Source: Podarcis vaucheri (lineage: Eukaryota). Taken from it: a DNA stretch of 64,000 bases. The stretch is taken from the NCBI GenBank assembly GCA_965113315.1, contig OZ220368.1; one strand, given 5' to 3'. Positions 4,101 to 50,888 of the stretch are shown piece by piece. How positions within the stretch are numbered: the stretch's first letter is position 1; each line of letters opens with the position of its first letter. The notes under the pieces were generated by a model. It saw only the letters and a program-made list of their open reading frames with translations, had not been told where the DNA came from and searched no databases. Position numbers and translations under genes: made by a program.

Positions 4101-7100
4101 CTTCCGATTTTTCTCTCGGGACTCTTTTTCCCCACGGGTTTTCTTCCTTTCCTCGATCCCATACATCCGATCGTGCGAATGCGTTCTTGCTTCCCTCCCC
4201 TCCTTTGCAAAGTCCCACCTGCCCAAATGCCTGCCGAGGAACTCTGGTCCCGGGACCCGAGTACACCTTCTCCCCTCTCTCTTTCCCAATTGATTCGACG
4301 AAGGAGGTCTCCTGATCCCGTCTGACTGGGGCGCACTTTTTTTAATGGAGGGTTTTTTTTTAAAGGCATCTTTTAATTTTTGTTGGAGCAGGTGGGGGAT
4401 TCCACCTAGGCGTTTCTGGAAAGAAGCAAAGGGCACCGCAAACGCTCGGAAGCTCTTTTCCTAATAGAGATGCGCAGGCGTTTAACCTGTTAAGGACGGC
4501 TGACTGCCGCCACCCGCCGCCACGTCTCCTTTTTCTGACTGCTCCCGTTTTGCGAGGCTCTGAGGACCCAGACGCCACTCAAATAAAGCACACTCCATTC
4601 TTTCCTCAGTATTGGGTGTGCCCCTCCACAGTCTCCTGTTTTTAAGAACAATTCTTCGCTCGGAGAATCTGTGGCAAAATGGCACTGCGCCTCTCACTTT
4701 ACCTTCACTAACGGTTTGCGTCGTCCTCTTTCCCTGCGCACCCCAATTTGGCTCATTTACCGTATTTCCAAAAAATGCAGGGGTTTCAACCCCACCCCTA
4801 GCAAACAGGCTAACGCGAAGGAAGGGAACGGATTTCCCTGGAAACCCAAGTTCCCAGGATAGACGGTGGTTCGAAGTCGAAGTGTGTTGTCAATTTCAAG
4901 TCAGTTGAGGAGAGAGAGGCGTTTTCTTTTTGTTTTGTTTTAAGGCAACTCTTTTCTCTGAACGGTTGACTAACCCATCACCTTTTCCGCAGTGATCCAG
5001 TCTGGAATTCACAGCCTCTTTAAAGTGGATGGGCTGTACCCGGATTAATAGGACGCAAATCGAATTAAATCCACGTTAGTTCGGATAACGTGGTGGTTTC
5101 GGATTCAAGCTATAAAATGCGCCTTCTTTTCCTTTTAGAAGTCTTCCTTCCTTCCCTCCCACCCCGACTCCCAATTCAGATTTCCCCACCCAGAAAATCG
5201 AATCTGGATTTGAGTGAAATTTGAGATAAGCTGAGAGGGTTCGGTTGCCCGTGCTTTGGTTCCCCCTCTCCAATGGTTTTGCGCTTTCTGGTTGTTCTTA
5301 CTAGGGGAAAACGAGGCAGGGTGCTGGGGGCCAGGAGCGGGAAAGATCCATGGTGTGATAGGTACGAAGAAGGTGCGGGTCTTGCTCCGATTCTCGGCTG
5401 TGACTTGATCCGATTTCTTTGTCGAGTGAATTCATTCTCTCTCCTGGGGACCGTAAGGAGAGAAACGAAGTCACCTCTTATCATGGGGATATATCCCTGG
5501 CCTCCTCTCTGTCTTTTCTCGGCCTTCTCCAATTCACTCAAGGCGGGGAAGCGTCGTTCTCTGTCAACGTCCCTACCTCGCTTGCACCACGAGAGACTTC
5601 GGTTTCCTGACCGGACTGGAGCCGCCTTTCCTTTGGGAGGGGGCGGGCGGAGAGGGTGAACTGGGTAGCCCGACCCCCCCCCCCCCATCCCTCGAGACTG
5701 ACTGGGCTGTGATGGGGAATATCTATGTTGTTGCGTCCAGCAGCAAATCCTCTTTTCCCCACCGTGTCGAAATGTAACTTGAGTATGGAACCTCGGCGCA
5801 GAGGGGAGCCCAGATCTGGACCCAAAGGGGGTTGGTTGCAAGGTGTGTGTGTGTGTTCCTTTCCCTTCCTTGGATTTGAGGAGACAGGAACTCGCCCTCG
5901 TCGCCGGTTGCCGAGCGAAAGGCGACGCTTTGGGCTAAGAACGAAAAGACAGGTTTTCTAAATTCGGAGTGGCAAGCCCCGATTTCTCTCGCCTCCTTTG
6001 TCCGCACCGCTGATGTTTTCCATATCAAGGAGTTTTCTCTTCCCGAAATGGGGTTAGAATTTTACGCAGCCTGCCTATGCACACAGGCACGAGAATTGTG
6101 CGACAGTGATTATATATTATAATGCATTTTATGAATGTGGTTTTGTATAAAACCGTTTTTAGCATGCCCTGCGCGTCACCATTCGTATACCACGTAGTGC
6201 AAACAGTTTCCTGATCACTAAACACCTAAAAGTAATTGAAAGGAGCAAGTAAATAACCAAAAGGGGGGGGGGGGAGAGAGACAGATAAACAGGAAGGGAG
6301 AGGGGAGGGGTAAAAGTGCGGAGGGAGAGGCGGAGGATAGAAAATTTAAAGAGGATTTTGCGTGGGCTATAGAAATACAAGCTTCTGGATAATATGCAAA
6401 TAATTTGAATCTTAAGCTCGGATGGTAATGCGCATTTTCTGCGGCGCTTATATTATTTTCTGTGACGCTTGCGCAGGAGAAAGGGCAGGTGCGCTGCGTC
6501 TTTCGCAGGTGTGGGAAGCGTGCTTAACCGCAGATTAGGCAGATGAAATGGTTAAGTGGCCCGTGTGGGGAAGTGTCCTCAGGGTTCCTTGTTTTCAAGT
6601 GTCTGTACCCAGAGGGGCACGGAGACTGTGGTCGAGAGGTGGGGGGCTGAATGTTTGCGCCCCATCGATTTGCTGTCGTGATGGGACCAAGCCCTGGCAA
6701 GCAGCGGCCTCTGGAGATGCAGGTTTTCTCGCGGTCTTGTTTGCGCGCCAGAGCGCGGGCGCCTTTTCCGACGCTCGGCTTTAATCTCTTTGCGCGCTTT
6801 CCAGAGATCTGTCGCGGATTCCCACTTTCCGCGCGCGCGTAGCTGGGGACAGACAAATAACCCTTTCTTCCCCCTTTACCCTAACTTCCGCTGCCTTCTG
6901 CGTGAACATCAGCCGCTCCTGTTGGAGTCTGTCAGGAAATAAGCCAAACAGGACTTCAGACCATAAACAAAATACAAACACTCGATTTTGCATTTAAGGG
7001 CATTTTGTTATTTTACATCTAGGGACATTTTAAATTCCGTTTAACTGCACCTCTTCTACACTGATGAGCGAAGAAAAAACAAATTACTGACACCGACTTA

Positions 7101-12880: not shown

Positions 12881-13720
12881 AAGCATGGAACAATGACTTT
12901 TGAGGTCCCTTCCAACCCTTTAATTCTATGTTTCTGTGATTAGGGACAGTTCACAAAAGGATGCAGAGAAACCTGTGGGTTTCCTGCATTTTGCCACTAT
13001 TGGGATATATTAGTTGCCACTAATATTGCATTTAGCACTTTTAATCCAGGAGCAAGGGAGGCAATCTAATAAATGAAGCACCGCTGACTGACACTTACAA
13101 ATGGCAAGCATTTCACCAATGTTCCCATGATTATTCCCTTTGACTATGGTGAGGCAGCTAAACCATCTTATTAGTGGCATGTGAATCGGAGTCCTGGAAA
13201 TTCTGATAGAACCCCAAATGCCTCCTATGATTTGCTGGCATAATTCAGAATCGTGCTGCCTTGCTCTGCCAATACAATCAGCAAAATAAAGAGTGCTAGA
13301 ACCAGCTTTCTTGAATGCCTGTCTATCTTTAGGACCAATTCAATTTATAACTGGATATTCCTGAGGTTTAGACATGTTAATCTGTGGCAGTGAAATCAAC
13401 AAAGAGTATTGCAGCGCCATAAAGATTAGCAGAAATTGTGGCATACAATTTCATGTCCCAGAGCTTGTTTCATAAGATTTATCAATTTGCGGGATATACA
13501 TGGCCACATGTGTGAACACTGAGATGAAGAGACCATGAAATAGAAAAGATACAGCAGGCCTCTGATATTTATATGTGGATTTATGTGTTTGTTGTTTGTG
13601 TGTATTTATACATAGTAAGATCAGTGAGCATCTATAACAATAGTCACTGGGCAGAACTCATTCTTTCTATATTACCTGTAGTGGAAGAAAAAAGCCCTGC
13701 TCTTGAGTAAAACCCAAATG

Positions 13721-13893
13721 CAGTGCTTTTTATGGGGGTACGCGGGGGTACGCATACCCTAAATATTGTGTAAATCTTTGTACTTTTCCATTTACTGTAT
13801 TTATTTTCCCCTATTTGAACTATAAAAAGGTAATTTTCTTTAGTCAAAATGAGAGCACCCATAAACATTTTTAAAGGGGGGGAAAAGGCACTG
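13721..13893. mobile_element. hAT-type MITE
   Basis: TIRs CAGTGCTTTT / AAAAGGCACTG. The 8-bp TSD is degenerate. Confidence 0.55.
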
Positions 13894-13973
13894 CCTAGAA
13901 GATGAATAGAACCAAATTTGCTGCTATTGTTGTTTCTGCCCCAGAATGAGAAGGTCAAAAAGCCATTCTTTGT

Positions 13974-14064
13974 GGTTGCTGGGCAACCACCGCCGCCCCC
14001 GGAAGCAGACGCGGCGCCGCGCTTCCGGTGCGGGCAGCGCCGTGCCCTCACCAAAGATGGCGGC
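13974..14064 (+). promoter_or_regulatory. Promoter-like motif cluster at the 5' end of the URM1 retrocopy
   Basis: X-box-like palindrome GGTTGCTGGGCAACC (13974-13988), inverted ETS/GABP pair CCGGAAGC (13999-14006) and GCTTCCGG (14021-14028), and YY1 motif AAGATGGCGGC (14054-14064). CpG-rich. Confidence 0.55.
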
Positions 14065-14362
14065 GCCCTTGTCCCTGCTGCTGGAGTGCGGAGGTGGAGC
14101 AGAGCTCTTGTTCGGCGGGATCAGGAAGCAGCGGGTGACTCTGCCCAGCCAGCAAGGACCTTGGGATGTCCGAAAGTTGCTGGTGTGGATGAAAGAGAAC
14201 CTGCTGAAAGAGAGGCCGGAACTGTTCGTGCAGGGAGAGTCTGTGCGGCCGGGAATCTTGGTGCTGATCAATGGGGCAGATTGGGAGTTGATGGGCGAGT
14301 TGGACTACCTGCTCCAAGACCAGGATAACGTCGTTTTCATCTCCACCTTGCATGGTGGATAG
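14057..14362 (+). CDS. URM1: URM1 (ubiquitin-related modifier 1) intronless retrocopy, intact 101-aa ORF
   Basis: [21 protein letters not shown]...[51 protein letters not shown]. Same length as vertebrate URM1, retains the C-terminal GG, strong Kozak context (AAGATGG), no introns. Confidence 0.93.
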
Positions 14363-17300
14363 ACTGCTGGGAGTATGGAAAAGAACATTTGTGCTGGTGG
14401 GCAGAGGGCATAAACATGCCTTGCTCTCCTGGCTGTCACCCCAGATCAGAGTCGGTTTCTCATTAGCTTCTTTTCTTAATGAAGTCTGCCCTTTCGACGC
14501 TTGGCTCCTCCCACCCAGTGGTTCAGCTCTCTCCTCTTTTGTCCCAGAAGGAGATCGAAATCCTTTCTGCACCTGGTCACCCTCTTCCCTGCTCCAAGAG
14601 GTTCATGCCATGGGACAAGTGGCTGGAAAGGAGCCGCTTTGCACGTGGCTGTCGCCCTTGTTTGCTTTCTTCTCCTTGGCGGCAGGGAAATGCCTGTGAT
14701 CAAAGAGGGGATCTCCCTTTCCTTCCAATCCAAGCCTTGGATCTGGTTGCAGCCATTAACAGTCATTAAGGGATATGGGGCGCATGCAAGGAAGATGGCA
14801 GATGCAAGACTCCCTCAGCCTATCTGCTCTTGATTTGCCATGCATGGATTTCAGTTCTGTGACTCAGTTTTGAAAAGTACCCAGCTAGAACCAGCTCACA
14901 AATGGTTACTTTGAATTTTGATGACTAATGAAGTATACTTTTGCCTGCCTTTTTTTTAAAGAAGAAGAAACTTGATGACCCTCAGAGTCCGTTCCAGCTC
15001 TACAGTTCTATGATGCTCTATTTTTTAATCTTCTGGTGGCACTGCCTGATCCTGTTCTGCCACAGCTGCTGTGTATGCATGCGATTGATTTCCCTTTCCA
15101 AATTGTCTGCTCTGCACTGTTCTGTCGCAAAGTGTTTTGCAATGTGTTGCAGAAGACGGAGTGCTTCATTTGAAGCTGGGTGTTCCGGACTCAGGTTCTG
15201 CCTCAGTCATGTACTTACTTCACTGGGTGGCCTTGAGCAAGTTGCGCTCTCTGTTAACTTCAGTTCCACATGTGTAAAGTGAGATTTGAAATGATTGACT
15301 CTGCAGGATGGTTTTGACAATAAACAATAAAAGTTGTGGAAACAAAAACAACACAAAATTCATTCTTTGTCAATGGTCAATTGTAATTAATTTAATGCAT
15401 GTTTTGAACATGCAACTTTGGTTATGTATTTAATTATTTGCAAAAATCAAATAGGCTATGTTGTTTGTACCTATTTGAATCTGTGAAGGACATACATAAT
15501 ATCAAATAGGTTATGGCTTTCAGAATGAAGGCTGAGTGGGTGGTTGCTAATTTCCAAATTGTGCAAAAGTGGAAGAATGACACAACTTTAATTGAAGGCG
15601 TGGAAGATGCTAATAATGGATAAAGTATTGCACCAATGGAAGGTAGCATTTTAACCCCAGATTTAATTATTGGAAAAAGGATTCCTGTTTCTAACTGAGC
15701 AGCTTGGAACAATAATAGACCACCCAGACTCTCATCCACGAGGATTTACTGAATTGAATATTGCCGTTGTCACTTGACCTTTGGTTTATGTACCTGAATA
15801 AATCACTAATTTTACTTCAAGTATTATGTTACTTTATAGATCTGCAAGGGATGCTGTTTAGGTGAAAATTTTTATGAAATCCCAAAGAGCTAAAAAGGAC
15901 AACAAATTCTAAAAAGCTAAGGCAAGGTGTTATCTTTTATATATAACCTGAAACAGATTCACCCTGCTCAGTGAAAAATGAATGCAGTTTGAACAGTCTA
16001 GAAAAACCTCCTATAAGAGTCTCAGAACTTGCTGTTTCTGTAGGAGAAATAAGTTATGAGAATGTCTTTCCAGCTGTCCTTGTTGCATGAACTTGACCAC
16101 ATGTCATAAAGAGAATGTTTCTCACAAAACATAATATGTAAAGGAAAGTAGGGGAGAGATGTAACCCTCAGACAGGGAATCTGGGGTGAAAGTCACTTAG
16201 GGATTTGTAAGGAATCCCTCATCCTTTGGATCACTTAACCTATAATAAAATTCATCTAAATTTGGCACCAAGAAAGCCACAATTCTGCACTTCAGACAAA
16301 AGAATGGCACTAACAAGCAGCATGCAGACACCTGATTTGTGGCTTTGTAACTGAGTTGTTGCAAGAAGGAATTGTGTTGGAGGGGAGCAGGGGGAAAGGC
16401 AGAGAAATAAGGAATGGGAGGTAAAAATGATGGATGATGGATGGTATGGATGTGCTTATAGCTGAGAGCCTAGAGGAAGTTTCACATTTCAAAGCAGGGG
16501 CCAGAATCTCTGGCCCTGAGAACTGGGGCCATTTCTAGAGGCAGCTTGTATGTTTTCAAGCACAATCTCGTTAGTCCTCATTAGCGACGCAAACCAATCC
16601 AGAGTCCAGGACACTCACATTTACCCCAGCTGCCTTCATCCTCTAAATTTAAATTTGAGGGCAGACAGCTGTGTTTTGCTTTTGTTATCCTTTAGAATAC
16701 CATTTTACATGGACGGTGTTCCATAAATACATAGTGTACTATAAGGTAATAATTATTATTAATAATATAATTCCATAAACATTTGGGAAAGTTTGAAAGT
16801 GAGATTAGATCCTGCAGAATCCATGGCCAATGTCAGATTCTGTCCCAGACCTCAGAAGATCTGTACATGGAAAAATCATAGAAGATAAACAACTCTGTCA
16901 TGGGGGTGGGGGTGAGTGGGTCAAGCCCAGCACCTTAAATCATAGCCCTGCAGAAAGCTCCAGATTAGGACACCACAGCAGATTGTGTTGACATAGGATG
17001 CTCTTGACAACTGGTCCTGTTTAGCAGGCATGTTCCACAATGCAACGCAGGAAAGTCTCCTGAAAATCCATGGGTACCTGATATGATCCATGCTACGCCT
17101 TCTTTGTGGAACCAGAGCAGTTAAGATGCGATTGATCAGCAGGTTGTATTGCCATCACAGCTTCTCTGCATGCTACTTCAAAGGCAAAGGCAATGTCATG
17201 AGGCGGAGGGAAGGAGGCTGCCTTGTGAATTATGGCATCATTATTATGCAAATAAACAGCACTTCTTTGGGAATTGATAGGATTTTGCGCAGGATCATTA

Positions 17301-32365: not shown

Positions 32366-33148
32366 TAGATGCAGGTATACAATATAGTATACCCATTGTT
32401 TCCTTTGTCCCATGGTCATCTCTGGAGAAAGATGTCTTGTGAGTTTTTGATGGACTACAGACCCTTGTGTGCTCTCTGACTCCAGAGACAGTGGTTGGTT
32501 ATGTCTGTACAGCAGGGGCAGCCATGGGTCTATCATTCCACCTTCAGTTCTCTTCAAAACCAATGCCTGTCTCCAGCAATAGAGGGCTCCTCAATAAATA
32601 AGCCAATCAGCTTGGCTGTTTCATTTGGATTCCAATACAAAAGGTTCCATCGCTCTTGCTCCTGAAAAGTCTTTCCCGGCCATCCAGAGGATTTGTAGCA
32701 GCATCAAACGGCAACAAATCCTTGATATTTACTGTGAGCCAGTCTCCTGCCACTCCATCGCTACCCAAGAGGATAGCAAAACAGGAAGACTCTGATGCAT
32801 AAACATCTCTTGCAATATTACACTAAACCTGCTCTGCCGTTCGACTCCTCAGAAATCAATCTTCCTTCAGGCATGTATATCAGAATTTATGCGCATTGCT
32901 TTTACTGGGTAATCTCCCTTGGCAGATTTTTACAACACATTCCATTATTTCGAACTATAGGCGGATAGAAATAGAGACGAACACACAGATATGCACATCA
33001 GTATTACCTGTTCTGCCTGCAGACAGACAGTTTATATATAGGCAGAAGCCCTCTTTAGTTGTTGGGCTTCAACTGGGGAGGGGAATGGCAGTCCTATCTA
33101 GATCTACTTATAACAACTTATTTGGACATATATATTTAATTATACAGC

Positions 33149-33519
33149 GGGACGCGGGTGGCGCTGTGGGTAAAAGCCTCAGTGCCTAGGGCTTGCCGAT
33201 CGAAAGGTCGGCGGTTCGAATCCCCGCGGCGGGGTGCGCTCCCGCTGCTCGGTCCCAGCGCCTGCCAACCTAGCAGTTCGAAAGCACCCCCGGGTGCAAG
33301 TAGATAAATAGGTACCGCTTACCAGCGGGAAGGTAAACGGCGTTTCCGTGTGCGGCTCTGGTTCGCCAGATGCAGCGATGTCACGCTGGCCACGTGACCC
33401 GGAAGTGTCTCCGGACAGCGCTGGCCCCTGGCCTATAGATGTGAGATGGGCGCACAAACCCCAGAGTCTGTCAAGACTGGCCCGCTCGGGCAGGGGTACC
33501 TTTACCTTTACCTTTACCT
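33149..33519 (+). mobile_element. Sauria SINE, distinct CpG-rich subfamily
   Basis: Diagnostic differences (GGTAAAAGCCTCAGTGCC head, altered 3' half) and TSD TATTTAATTATACAG. Confidence 0.88.
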
Positions 33520-34074
33520 TATTTAATTATACAGGCCTTTCCACCCGGTGCCAGCCAGCCCATGAGGCTCAGTGAGGCGGTCAACCTTGAGCGGCAAGCT
33601 AGGGACAGCTGGGGGGCGGGCAGCAAATCTGGGCCCCCCAAAGGATCTTGCCACTCGCCACCTCCAGCGCTTGTCACCCATTGCCACGGCCTCCCCCACC
33701 CGGCTGCTCCTCTCTATTTGATTCAATTGGTGTATATATGGGACAAAGCTGTTAAATGGGTGCAATATTTGGATGCCCCATTCAGACGATGATGATTTGT
33801 TTACAGGTATAATAACCAATAATTTAATTGTTTACAAGTATAATAACCAATGATATGAACCTCAAAAGACAAACATTTTTAAAATGAAAATATATACGCA
33901 ATAAAGCAATCCTATTATATAAGCACCCATAATTAAAATATGCCAAATATGCCATAAAACAACAGCAGCAGGAGACTTGGGCTACAAGATCCAGGGCGTG
34001 CCTGTTTTAATATTCACCACAATTCCTGCAAGTCACAGGGATGGGTTTTCACAATTAATTCTGTGTCACAGTTC

Positions 34075-49066: not shown

Positions 49067-50008
49067 CATAGAATCATAGAATCATAGAGTTGGAAGAGAC
49101 CACAAGGGCCATCGAGTCCAACCCCCTGCCAAGCAGGAAACACCATCAGAGCACTCCTGACATATGGTTGTCAAGCCTCTGCTTAAAGACCTCCAAAGTA
49201 GGAGACTCCACCACACTCCTTGGCAGCAAATTCCACTGTCGAACAGCTCTTACTGTCAGGAAGTTCTTCCTCATGTTTAGGTGGAATCTTCTTTCTTGTA
49301 GTTTGGATCCATTGCTCCGTGTCCGCTTCTCTGGAGCAGCAGAAAACAACCTTTCTCCCTCCTCTATATGACATCCTTTTATATATTTGAACATGGCTAT
49401 CATATCACCCCTTAACCTCCTCTTCTCCAGGCTAAACATGCCCAGCTCCCTTAGCCGTTCCTCATAAGGCATCGTTTCCAGGCCTTTGACCATTTCGGTT
49501 GCCCTCCTCTGGACACGTTCCAGTTTGTCAGTGTCTTTCTTGAACTGTGGTGCCCAGAACTGGACACAGTACTCCAGGTGAGGTCTGACCAGAGCAGAAT
49601 ACAGTGGCACTATTACTTCCCTTGATCTAGATGCTATACTCCTATTGATGTGGCCCAGAATTGCATTGGCTTTTTTAGCTGCCGCGTCACACTGTTGGCT
49701 CATGTCAAGTTTGTGGTCAACCAAGACTCCTAGATCCTTTTCACATGTACTGCTCTCAAGCCAGGTGTCACCCATCTTGTATTTGTGCCTCTCATTTTTT
49801 TTTGCCCAAGTGCAAAACTTTACATTTCTCCCTGTTAAAATTCATCTTGTTTGTTTTGGCCCAGTTCTCTAATCTGTCAAGGTCGTTTTGAAGTGTGATC
49901 CTGTCCTCTGGGGTGTTAGCCACCCCTCCCAGTTTGGTGTCATCTGCAAATTTGATCAGGATGCCCTTGAGTCCATCATCCAAGTCGTTGATAAAGATGT
50001 TGAATAAG
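49067..50008 (-). mobile_element. CR1 LINE 3' fragment (RT C-terminus)
   Basis: Motifs [28 protein letters not shown] and [12 protein letters not shown]-like, with (ATTCTATG)n tail. One frameshift in the T-run near 49795-49803. Confidence 0.93.
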
Positions 50009-50888
50009 TTTGTACCACCTTGAGCTCCTTGGAGGAAAGGCGAGATATAAATGTAAAAACAGCGTGAGCAACACCACAATGCCAGAGAAAAACAAACAAA
50101 ACAAAGGCCCTCCAAAACATATTCAAAAGCTTTTGCTATCAAAATGAAACAGTGGTTGTGTTAGGGCTGCCTTTAGCCATTTCAGCAACTCTGAAAAGCA
50201 TTTAAAAATTGTGCCTCCCCGTTCTTTCCACAACGCCAGCAGCCTTTTCACACTGGTCCAAAAAGCCCTGTGGCTTCTCCGTCCCCCGTGGGAGCAACTG
50301 AAGTGGTTGCCATGGAGCTCATGTCTGCCATGAATTCCTTCCGGTGCTTCAAACTGTTAAGTTGCACACAGCTTTTGGAAGTTGCTTGTCTGACACCCCC
50401 GGCCTCTGGAACAGAATGTACTTTCAGTGCACTAACTGGAGCTCTTACCAGCACTGCCAAGACTCTTCCTGAAGTTCTTTACAGAGCAGGTTGGTGAGCG
50501 CCAAGTCTTCACGTCAAGACTGTTGCTTTCAGTTTTATTTAGTCATCTTTTGGACTTTGGGTAGGTTGAGACTCCAAAGATCAGATCCAACTGCTGGGCA
50601 CTACTGCAAGCCAGATATGTTTCAAGCATCAATGCTTCTCCGGATAATACATAAATGCTAATAATGTCATGGGGTGGAGGACATTTCATAGAATTGGAAG
50701 GGAGCCTGAGGATCATCTCGTCTGTTCCACTGTCGAACAGCTCTTACTGTCCGATGCTTCCTGATGTTTAGTCGGAATCAGGGGTGCCAATATGAATAAA
50801 ATATTTGGGGGGGGGGAGGTAATCCCTGCCTCACATAATTGTTCACATGACACAGCACTTGCACACCATTTGAATGACACTACCACGA

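Follow-up and report, generated by a model that had tools for sequence, protein, structure and literature searches.

The locus described here raises the question of whether a processed gene copy can bring its own promoter to a new genomic site and, if so, what that promoter does there. It lies in a window of 64,000 nucleotides (the whole stretch of DNA analyzed) from Podarcis vaucheri. Our best explanation, to which we assign a probability of about 70%, is that an intact autosomal retrogene of URM1 took its first 83 bases from the CpG-island promoter region of a likely Z-linked parent and is likely transcribed from this inherited partial promoter.

A processed URM1 copy and its parent

Positions 13975–15343 of the window comprise a processed, intron-less copy of URM1, whose parent was located by a search of the same genome on contig C42, where its five exons are spread over about 35 kb. 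All five exons are joined in the copy, the four GT-AG introns of the parent being missing, and similarity to the parent begins at 13975. The insert is bracketed by a target-site duplication (TSD) with 14/16 identical positions (15/16 in the relatives labeled organisms A and E, which have a T at 13962), and its A-initiated 5′ copy is what we take to be an L1-type target. At the 3′ end, the insert terminates in a decayed A-rich tail that is absent from the genomic sequence of the parent. The processed origin is established by these sequence features. The base at the 5′ junction, G13974, is unlike both the parental base and the base following the 3′ TSD (C in either case), and is the same in organisms A and E; either it was added without a template, possibly from the cap, or it arose by a later C>G change. 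The features of the insert are as follows:

13958–13973, + strand: 5′ TSD of 16 bp, opening with an A run (identity to 15355–15370)
13974, + strand: extra G at the 5′ junction (differs from the parental C)
13975–13988, + strand: X-box (RFX-type) motif, the first copied bases (one difference from the parent, at 13981)
13975–14362, no strand: strongly AT-to-GC-biased stretch with retained CpGs (31:0 in its first 300 bp)
13999–14006, + strand: ETS-type site 1, inherited (parent differs at the first base)
14021–14028, − strand: ETS-type site 2, inverted and inherited (parent differs at both end bases)
14039–14051, + strand: start zone of copy-type contigs in four RNA-like runs from 3 studies and 2 organisms (14039, 14044, 14046, 14051)
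14054–14063, + strand: YY1-type motif over the Kozak context and ATG (identical in the parent)
14057–14362, + strand: intact URM1 coding sequence without introns, encoding 101 aa with a C-terminal Gly-Gly (Pfam Urm1, 3e-35)
14363–15343, + strand: parental 3′UTR with two AATAAA signals (15319, 15326)
15344–15358, + strand: decayed poly(A) tail, overlapping the A run of the 3′ TSD (absent from the parent)
15355–15370, + strand: 3′ TSD (from the TSD comparison)

No further URM1 copy was found in the genome among the candidates scored (40/268 and 5/5); with this single copy besides the parent, the genome offers no internal outgroup. The parental 3′UTR contains about 630–650 bp (C42, about 48933140–48933770) without a counterpart in the copy, at window position 15060, and the contigs of organism A break at this very point of the 3′UTR; thus, the parent likely acquired the extra segment by a later insertion. 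A repeat fragment of roughly 50 bp (14955–15025) within the 3′UTR matches dozens of places in the genome and is also found in the parent. Elsewhere in the window, we observed a reverse-transcriptase fragment at 49795–50160 on the − strand (Pfam RVT_1, 1.5e-8), likely a LINE remnant, and further CpG-rich patches at 1300–2100, 6500–6900 and 33100–33600, which gave no Pfam match and probably represent regulatory islands or repeats of young age.

The copy is on the 108-Mb contig C25. C42 (53 Mb) carries the single ADD_ATRX match and both Ctr matches of the genome, the genes of which presumably occupy positions on chicken 4p and 17; URM1 itself belongs to the part equivalent to chicken 17 and human 9. 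As described in two studies, the lacertid Z corresponds to GGA4p plus GGA17 (PMC6534595, PMC8622242). Hence, C42 is likely the Z, which would place the parent on the lacertid Z and the copy on an autosome. In both DNA-like runs examined, the contig depth of the parent is about half that of the copy (12.5 vs 22.5; 64.7 vs 106–135), a hint of parental hemizygosity. A comparable partition is seen in P. raffonei, L. agilis and P. lilfordi, where the URM1-like models are on sequences of 95–100 Mb and URM1 is on sequences of 47–51 Mb. Lacertids are not known to balance the dosage of Z-linked genes.

The inherited 5′ region, transcription and selection

The preliminary description of this DNA, made from the sequence alone, had pointed to two inverted ETS sites and a YY1 motif over the ATG, in a CpG-rich setting and with all motifs inside the TSDs. 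Each of these observations is borne out: CCGGAAGC occurs at 13999–14006 (+) and 14021–14028 (−), as an identical pair exclusive to the copy (the parent differs at 13999, 14021 and 14028); the coding ATG at 14057 is inside the YY1-like stretch; the 91 bp from 13974 to 14064 contain 13 CpGs (o/e 1.0, GC 76%), against an o/e of 0.23 and 0.10 in the 1-kb flanks; and the TSDs enclose all of them. The YY1 match is not an independent signal because it overlaps the Kozak context and the Met-Ala-Ala codons. The statement that the insert starts exactly at a palindromic X-box needs to be qualified: the motif is present at 13974–13988, but the palindrome is imperfect, with 6-bp arms and a 3-nt spacer, and parental similarity starts one base further in. 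In 20,000 dinucleotide shuffles of 13974–14066, the X-box was seen 65 times, two ETS cores three times, YY1 19 times and all three never, with the motif patterns being consensus forms that were picked after the sequence had been seen.

A comparison with the parental URM1 promoter region, as proposed in the preliminary description, aligns 82/82 bases of 13975–14056 without a gap and with 12 differences, and reveals the X-box, both ETS sites and the YY1/Kozak stretch at unchanged spacing in the parent, whose CpG island spans the stretch matching the copied 5′ bases. Upstream of the first copied base, the parent has a GC-box at a distance of 29 bases and, between the two, a third ETS core, neither of which was copied; hence, what the copy carried was a partial promoter. 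The motif identity and spacing, and the loss of the GC-box and the third ETS core, are established by this alignment. Thus, the earlier claim that the copy carried its own promoter stands as far as parental CpG-island sequence with the same spacing is concerned, but has to be narrowed to part of the promoter, devoid of the GC-box and one ETS site. Relative to the parent, motifs and spacers did not differ significantly in conservation (4/40 vs 8/49 positions differing, p=0.54). DNA contigs of organisms A and E cross both the junction and the 5′ cassette with all four motifs unchanged; the three positions differing in these two relatives across 13974–14064 (13995, 14009, 14017) are all outside the motifs and are too few for a test. 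None of the motifs was found in the upstream flank (13000–13973), nor was there a CpG-rich 300-bp window between about 8100 and 13900 or a CpG-rich window within 5 kb upstream of the insert. A repeat element just upstream of the insert (13727–13893) is covered by many RNA contigs and reads with loose ends and might in principle contribute promoter activity.

Evidence for transcription comes from relatives, for which we found contigs of 16 runs guessed to be RNA (3 organisms, 5 studies) and of six DNA-like runs, as well as two raw RNA runs; five, two and one of these, respectively, were examined. Copy-type contigs were recovered in 5/5 of the RNA-like runs examined (of 16 listed), representing four studies and three organisms, with their RNA status being guessed and none of the listed contig sets with this stretch recorded as RNA; they show 1 difference in 217 bp, 13 in 480, 5 in 203, and 10 and 14 in about 380, for comparison with 38/400 between parent and copy. 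Beyond the four runs that define the start zone listed above, the contig of the fifth begins at 14088. In all five, 13906–14006 is uncovered and no loose 5′ ends were seen, while the DNA contigs run through. These observations offer a weak hint of a main start at or a little above 14039–14051, below the X-box and the ETS pair, with the proviso that contig ends cannot show a transcription start and that GC-rich 5′ ends drop out. In a raw single-cell RNA run, every read over 14007–15319 is on the + strand; 6/10 reads at 15132 are without the parent's deletion and parental alleles are seen in 9/9 reads at 14781 and 6/6 at 15251, positions at which the copy sequence of organism E is not known, in a set of reads selected by a likeness filter that favors the copy. 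Thus, the copy appears to be transcribed in relatives and, by analogy with its housekeeping parent, its expression is probably broad. One RNA-like contig of organism B continues into the 3′ flank over 15344–15764, roughly 400 bp beyond the poly(A) site, which suggests read-through or a longer 3′ end. A scan of the 138 frames of 62–109 aa in positions 1–30000 yielded no Pfam match above the cut-off (three weak matches), with the 172 listed frames of this size beyond 30000 being outside the scan, and the one recognizable product among the 66 frames of at least 110 aa is the reverse-transcriptase fragment.

The URM1 frame of the copy is intact. As such an outcome is found in 36% of frames simulated with 15 random substitutions, frame survival is weak evidence, and the claim of selection is carried by the dN/dS of 0.19 between copy and parent (Fisher p=9e-6) and by the indels relative to the parent (none in the 306-bp coding sequence vs 20 in about 970 bp of 3′UTR, p about 0.002). 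Read from the alignment, these two measures establish purifying selection on the frame. The copy differs at near-invariant residues, namely I45M (Ile in 118/118 other homologues), D73G (Asp in 110/118) and F11C (Phe in 109/118). Its protein is 98% identical to the Podarcis raffonei URM1-like model XP_053247310.1, and derived residues are common to the copy, this model and Lacerta agilis XP_033007203.1, as well as to the P. lilfordi model. A 138-aa frame from an ATG at 13946 was considered as an N-terminal extension and rejected, as it begins in flank DNA and its start is out of frame in P0002. In the P. lilfordi model P0091, the 5′ cassette is read in another frame that joins the URM1 frame near codon 23–24; the 1-base indel that this would imply, which speaks against uniform constraint, is either a loss or an artifact of that assembly.

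CpG retention and AT-to-GC skew

The first 388 bp of the copy have kept 16/17 parental CpGs, as opposed to 4/11 in the 3′UTR (Fisher p=0.002), and now contain 26 CpGs. Over the same stretch, copy–parent differences, counted pairwise, favor GC in the copy by 34:1 vs 47:26 in the 3′UTR (p=1e-4), the latter being a mild skew in itself (p=0.019). Of the 34:1 skew, 24 are outside CpG, and exon 1, where the parent is a CpG island too, displays a skew of 12:0. CpG retention and skew are thereby established for this alignment. Some of the pairwise signal stems from the parent, with the amino-acid differences at 33 and 34 including GC-to-AT changes on its lineage. When lacertid and outgroup proteins are used to polarize the weak/strong amino-acid changes, all of those assigned to the copy lineage (8/8) run from AT to GC (p=0.008), I45M, D73G and F11C among them. 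Lacerta agilis has five of these eight changes, the other three being later; hence, the bias spans two periods.

Together, the CpG retention and the AT-to-GC skew point to unmethylated, recombining germline chromatin. The pattern of the skew is what GC-biased gene conversion at a hotspot leaves; judged from these substitutions, a new hotspot of recombination likely came into being together with the promoter. We propose the following course of events: a full-length transcript that initiated at an upstream start, at the X-box, would have been retroposed by an L1-type element, such that the X-box and the ETS pair came to lie upstream of a new, downstream start near 14030–14050. Binding of ETS, RFX and YY1 factors would then have kept the small island unmethylated at an AT-rich, CpG-poor site; the resulting open germline chromatin might have attracted meiotic recombination, and GC-biased gene conversion could have fixed AT-to-GC changes, some of them at near-invariant URM1 residues.

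A contrasting picture is seen in Zootoca vivipara, whose URM1-like protein P0011, on a 98-Mb sequence, has none of the derived residues of the copy. Its own changes relative to the parental codons (inferred from the protein) comprise five GC-to-AT and no AT-to-GC changes, the converse of the 8:0 seen in the copy (Fisher p=0.0008); three of the five are at CpGs, one of these being within the YY1/Kozak stretch. This gene could represent either an independent copy or the insertion described here after a divergent history. If it is orthologous, the inherited cassette is not enough everywhere, which tempers the idea that the copy was competent from the start.

The loss of PRDM9 was considered as an explanation of the skew and ruled out, as a PRDM9-like gene is present on contig C26 (12356000–12402000, L016–L021), with exons of KRAB-like, SSXRD and PR type and with 12 zinc fingers, identified by pattern matching, in tandem; hence, a PRDM9 hotspot is possible. 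A second, near-identical copy starts about 31 kb further on, indicating a tandem duplication, with LINE-type frames both inside it and between the two copies. Our literature search found nothing on point for PRDM9 in lacertids. A study of snakes that keep PRDM9 reports that promoter-like features recombine there and that GC* peaks are conserved across lineages, and that PRDM9 hotspots turn over quickly (10.1101/2023.07.11.548536); a mammalian study reports that such promoter-like hotspots follow germline hypomethylation (PMC11161765). The putative hotspot at the P. vaucheri locus resembles these PRDM9-independent hotspots in the local AT-to-GC excess on a CpG-rich, promoter-like stretch, in its persistence across lineages and in a genomic background with a PRDM9-like gene, but differs in that the feature is newly made by retroposition.

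Alternative explanations, parallels and significance

One may ask whether the copied 83 bases were just an inherited 5′UTR or a weak seed, with the working promoter arising later from the flank or by substitutions such as those that gained the CCGGAA cores. This reading, which we consider unlikely, draws on the upstream GC-box and ETS site left behind, the difference of both ETS sites from the parent, motifs that are no more conserved than their spacers, the apparent decay of the Zootoca copy at CpGs and, in a mammalian survey, the new origin of about 86% of the promoters of expressed retrocopies (PMC4772013). Set against it, the flank has 38% GC, a CpG o/e of 0.23 and none of the motifs; contigs start inside the insert, below the motifs; and the survival of 16/17 CpGs argues against a long methylated phase. 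A separate challenge concerns the skew alone, which might have nothing to do with the promoter and instead reflect one or more PRDM9-directed hotspots or AT drift of the parent on a less-recombining Z. We regard this as doubtful, though a more serious contender than the foregoing: the PRDM9-like locus, the mild skew of the 3′UTR (47:26, p=0.019), the parent-lineage GC-to-AT changes at codons 33–34 and three L. agilis-specific amino-acid changes that are not AT-to-GC are all in its favor; yet the skew is strongest over the inherited island (31:0 across 300 bp), is 8:0 once polarized, and acted both before and after the Lacerta split, when PRDM9 hotspots, according to the snake study cited above, turn over quickly. 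A skew that has lasted and is centered on the imported island would be better explained by a promoter hotspot than by a short-lived PRDM9 site.

The preliminary description had further raised the possibility that the copy, by virtue of its X-box, is under RFX2 control with gonad-biased expression. The X-box is indeed present and kept, and the CpG and GC patterns speak for open chromatin in the germline; however, the X-box is simply that of the parent, several RFX factors are broadly expressed, such germline openness is common to all CpG-island promoters, and the copy-type contigs come from four studies and three organisms without tissue labels. Even granting that retrocopies are most often testis-expressed in the mammalian survey (PMC4772013), we find this suggestion slightly less credible again than a promoter of later origin. 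Least plausible by far is that the copy piggybacks on the transcription of a host or neighboring gene. One contig does cross the 3′ junction to 15764, and small host exons without a Pfam match, or in the unscanned 62–109 aa frames beyond 30000, could escape; but the unique upstream flank is uncovered, without loose 5′ ends, in 5/5 RNA-like runs, no recognizable exon is nearby among the frames scanned, and no CpG-rich window exists within 5 kb upstream. We favor transcription of the copy from its inherited partial promoter.

The notion that retrocopies might inherit promoters reportedly goes back to Okamura and Nakai 2008, as credited by Carelli et al. 2016. In that later survey, inheritance via mRNA initiated upstream accounts for 6/230 human and 7/243 mouse expressed retrocopies, or about 3% (PMC4772013; restated in PMC9834230), while about 86% of mammalian expressed retrocopies gain new promoters (PMC4772013). 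By its sequence features, the P. vaucheri locus belongs to this known, uncommon kind. As in the cases detailed there (PMC4772013; e.g., hsa_retrop24247), an mRNA from an upstream start would have brought downstream promoter elements, and parental sequence lies upstream of the apparent start of the copy; unlike those CAGE-defined human and mouse cases, the host is a lizard, the start is hinted at by contig ends alone, and only part of the parent's motif set was transferred. A second parallel is with the therian out-of-X retrogenes (PMC4772013): here too, an intact autosomal copy of a housekeeping gene has a parent that is likely on a sex chromosome, and the lacertid sex chromosome is partly homologous to the mammalian X on which the therian parents reside. 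Unlike those retrogenes, this one is found in a ZW system, its parental gene falls in the portion equivalent to chicken 17 and human 9, and it is known from its sequence, not from testis-specific compensation or meiotic silencing. At the protein level, the copy has the C-terminal Gly-Gly in common with URM1 (PF09138) and the models XP_053247310.1 and XP_033007203.1. Relatives already carry automatic annotations of the URM1-like gene; the literature searched gave nothing on its retro-origin, promoter or GC skew, and no paper dealing with retrogenes of URM1, with a lizard retrogene that left the Z or with an X-box at URM1, most subscription papers being outside the reach of the search. What the present locus adds to the known kind is thus a candidate out-of-Z origin and a hotspot that was likely born with the promoter.

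A more far-reaching scenario can be put forward only tentatively, as we lean against it in its entirety. Retroposition might have moved a working mini-promoter off the Z, giving rise to a second expressed URM1 and to a lasting PRDM9-independent hotspot at a blank autosomal site, where conversion overrode selection at residues that hardly vary among vertebrates; the copy might then restore the URM1 dose in ZW females, and the Zootoca gene would be the same insertion with its island methylated. Were this true, Zootoca and Podarcis would constitute a natural on/off experiment for a promoter-made hotspot.

Retrocopies rarely inherit promoters, and the mapping of such cases has centered on mammals. 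In the lizard case, the genome that harbors the copy also has the parent, the insertion site is dated and had no earlier CpG island, and several lacertids have orthologues; the locus is also a candidate out-of-Z retrogene in a ZW lizard. Its minimal motif set, consisting of an X-box, two ETS sites and YY1 without a GC-box, may suffice to hold a small island open. As the imported island is where the skew is found, this locus could lend itself to a test of whether a new promoter-like feature alone attracts recombination in a reptile with PRDM9, and, likewise, whether conversion pushes harmful changes into a conserved protein.
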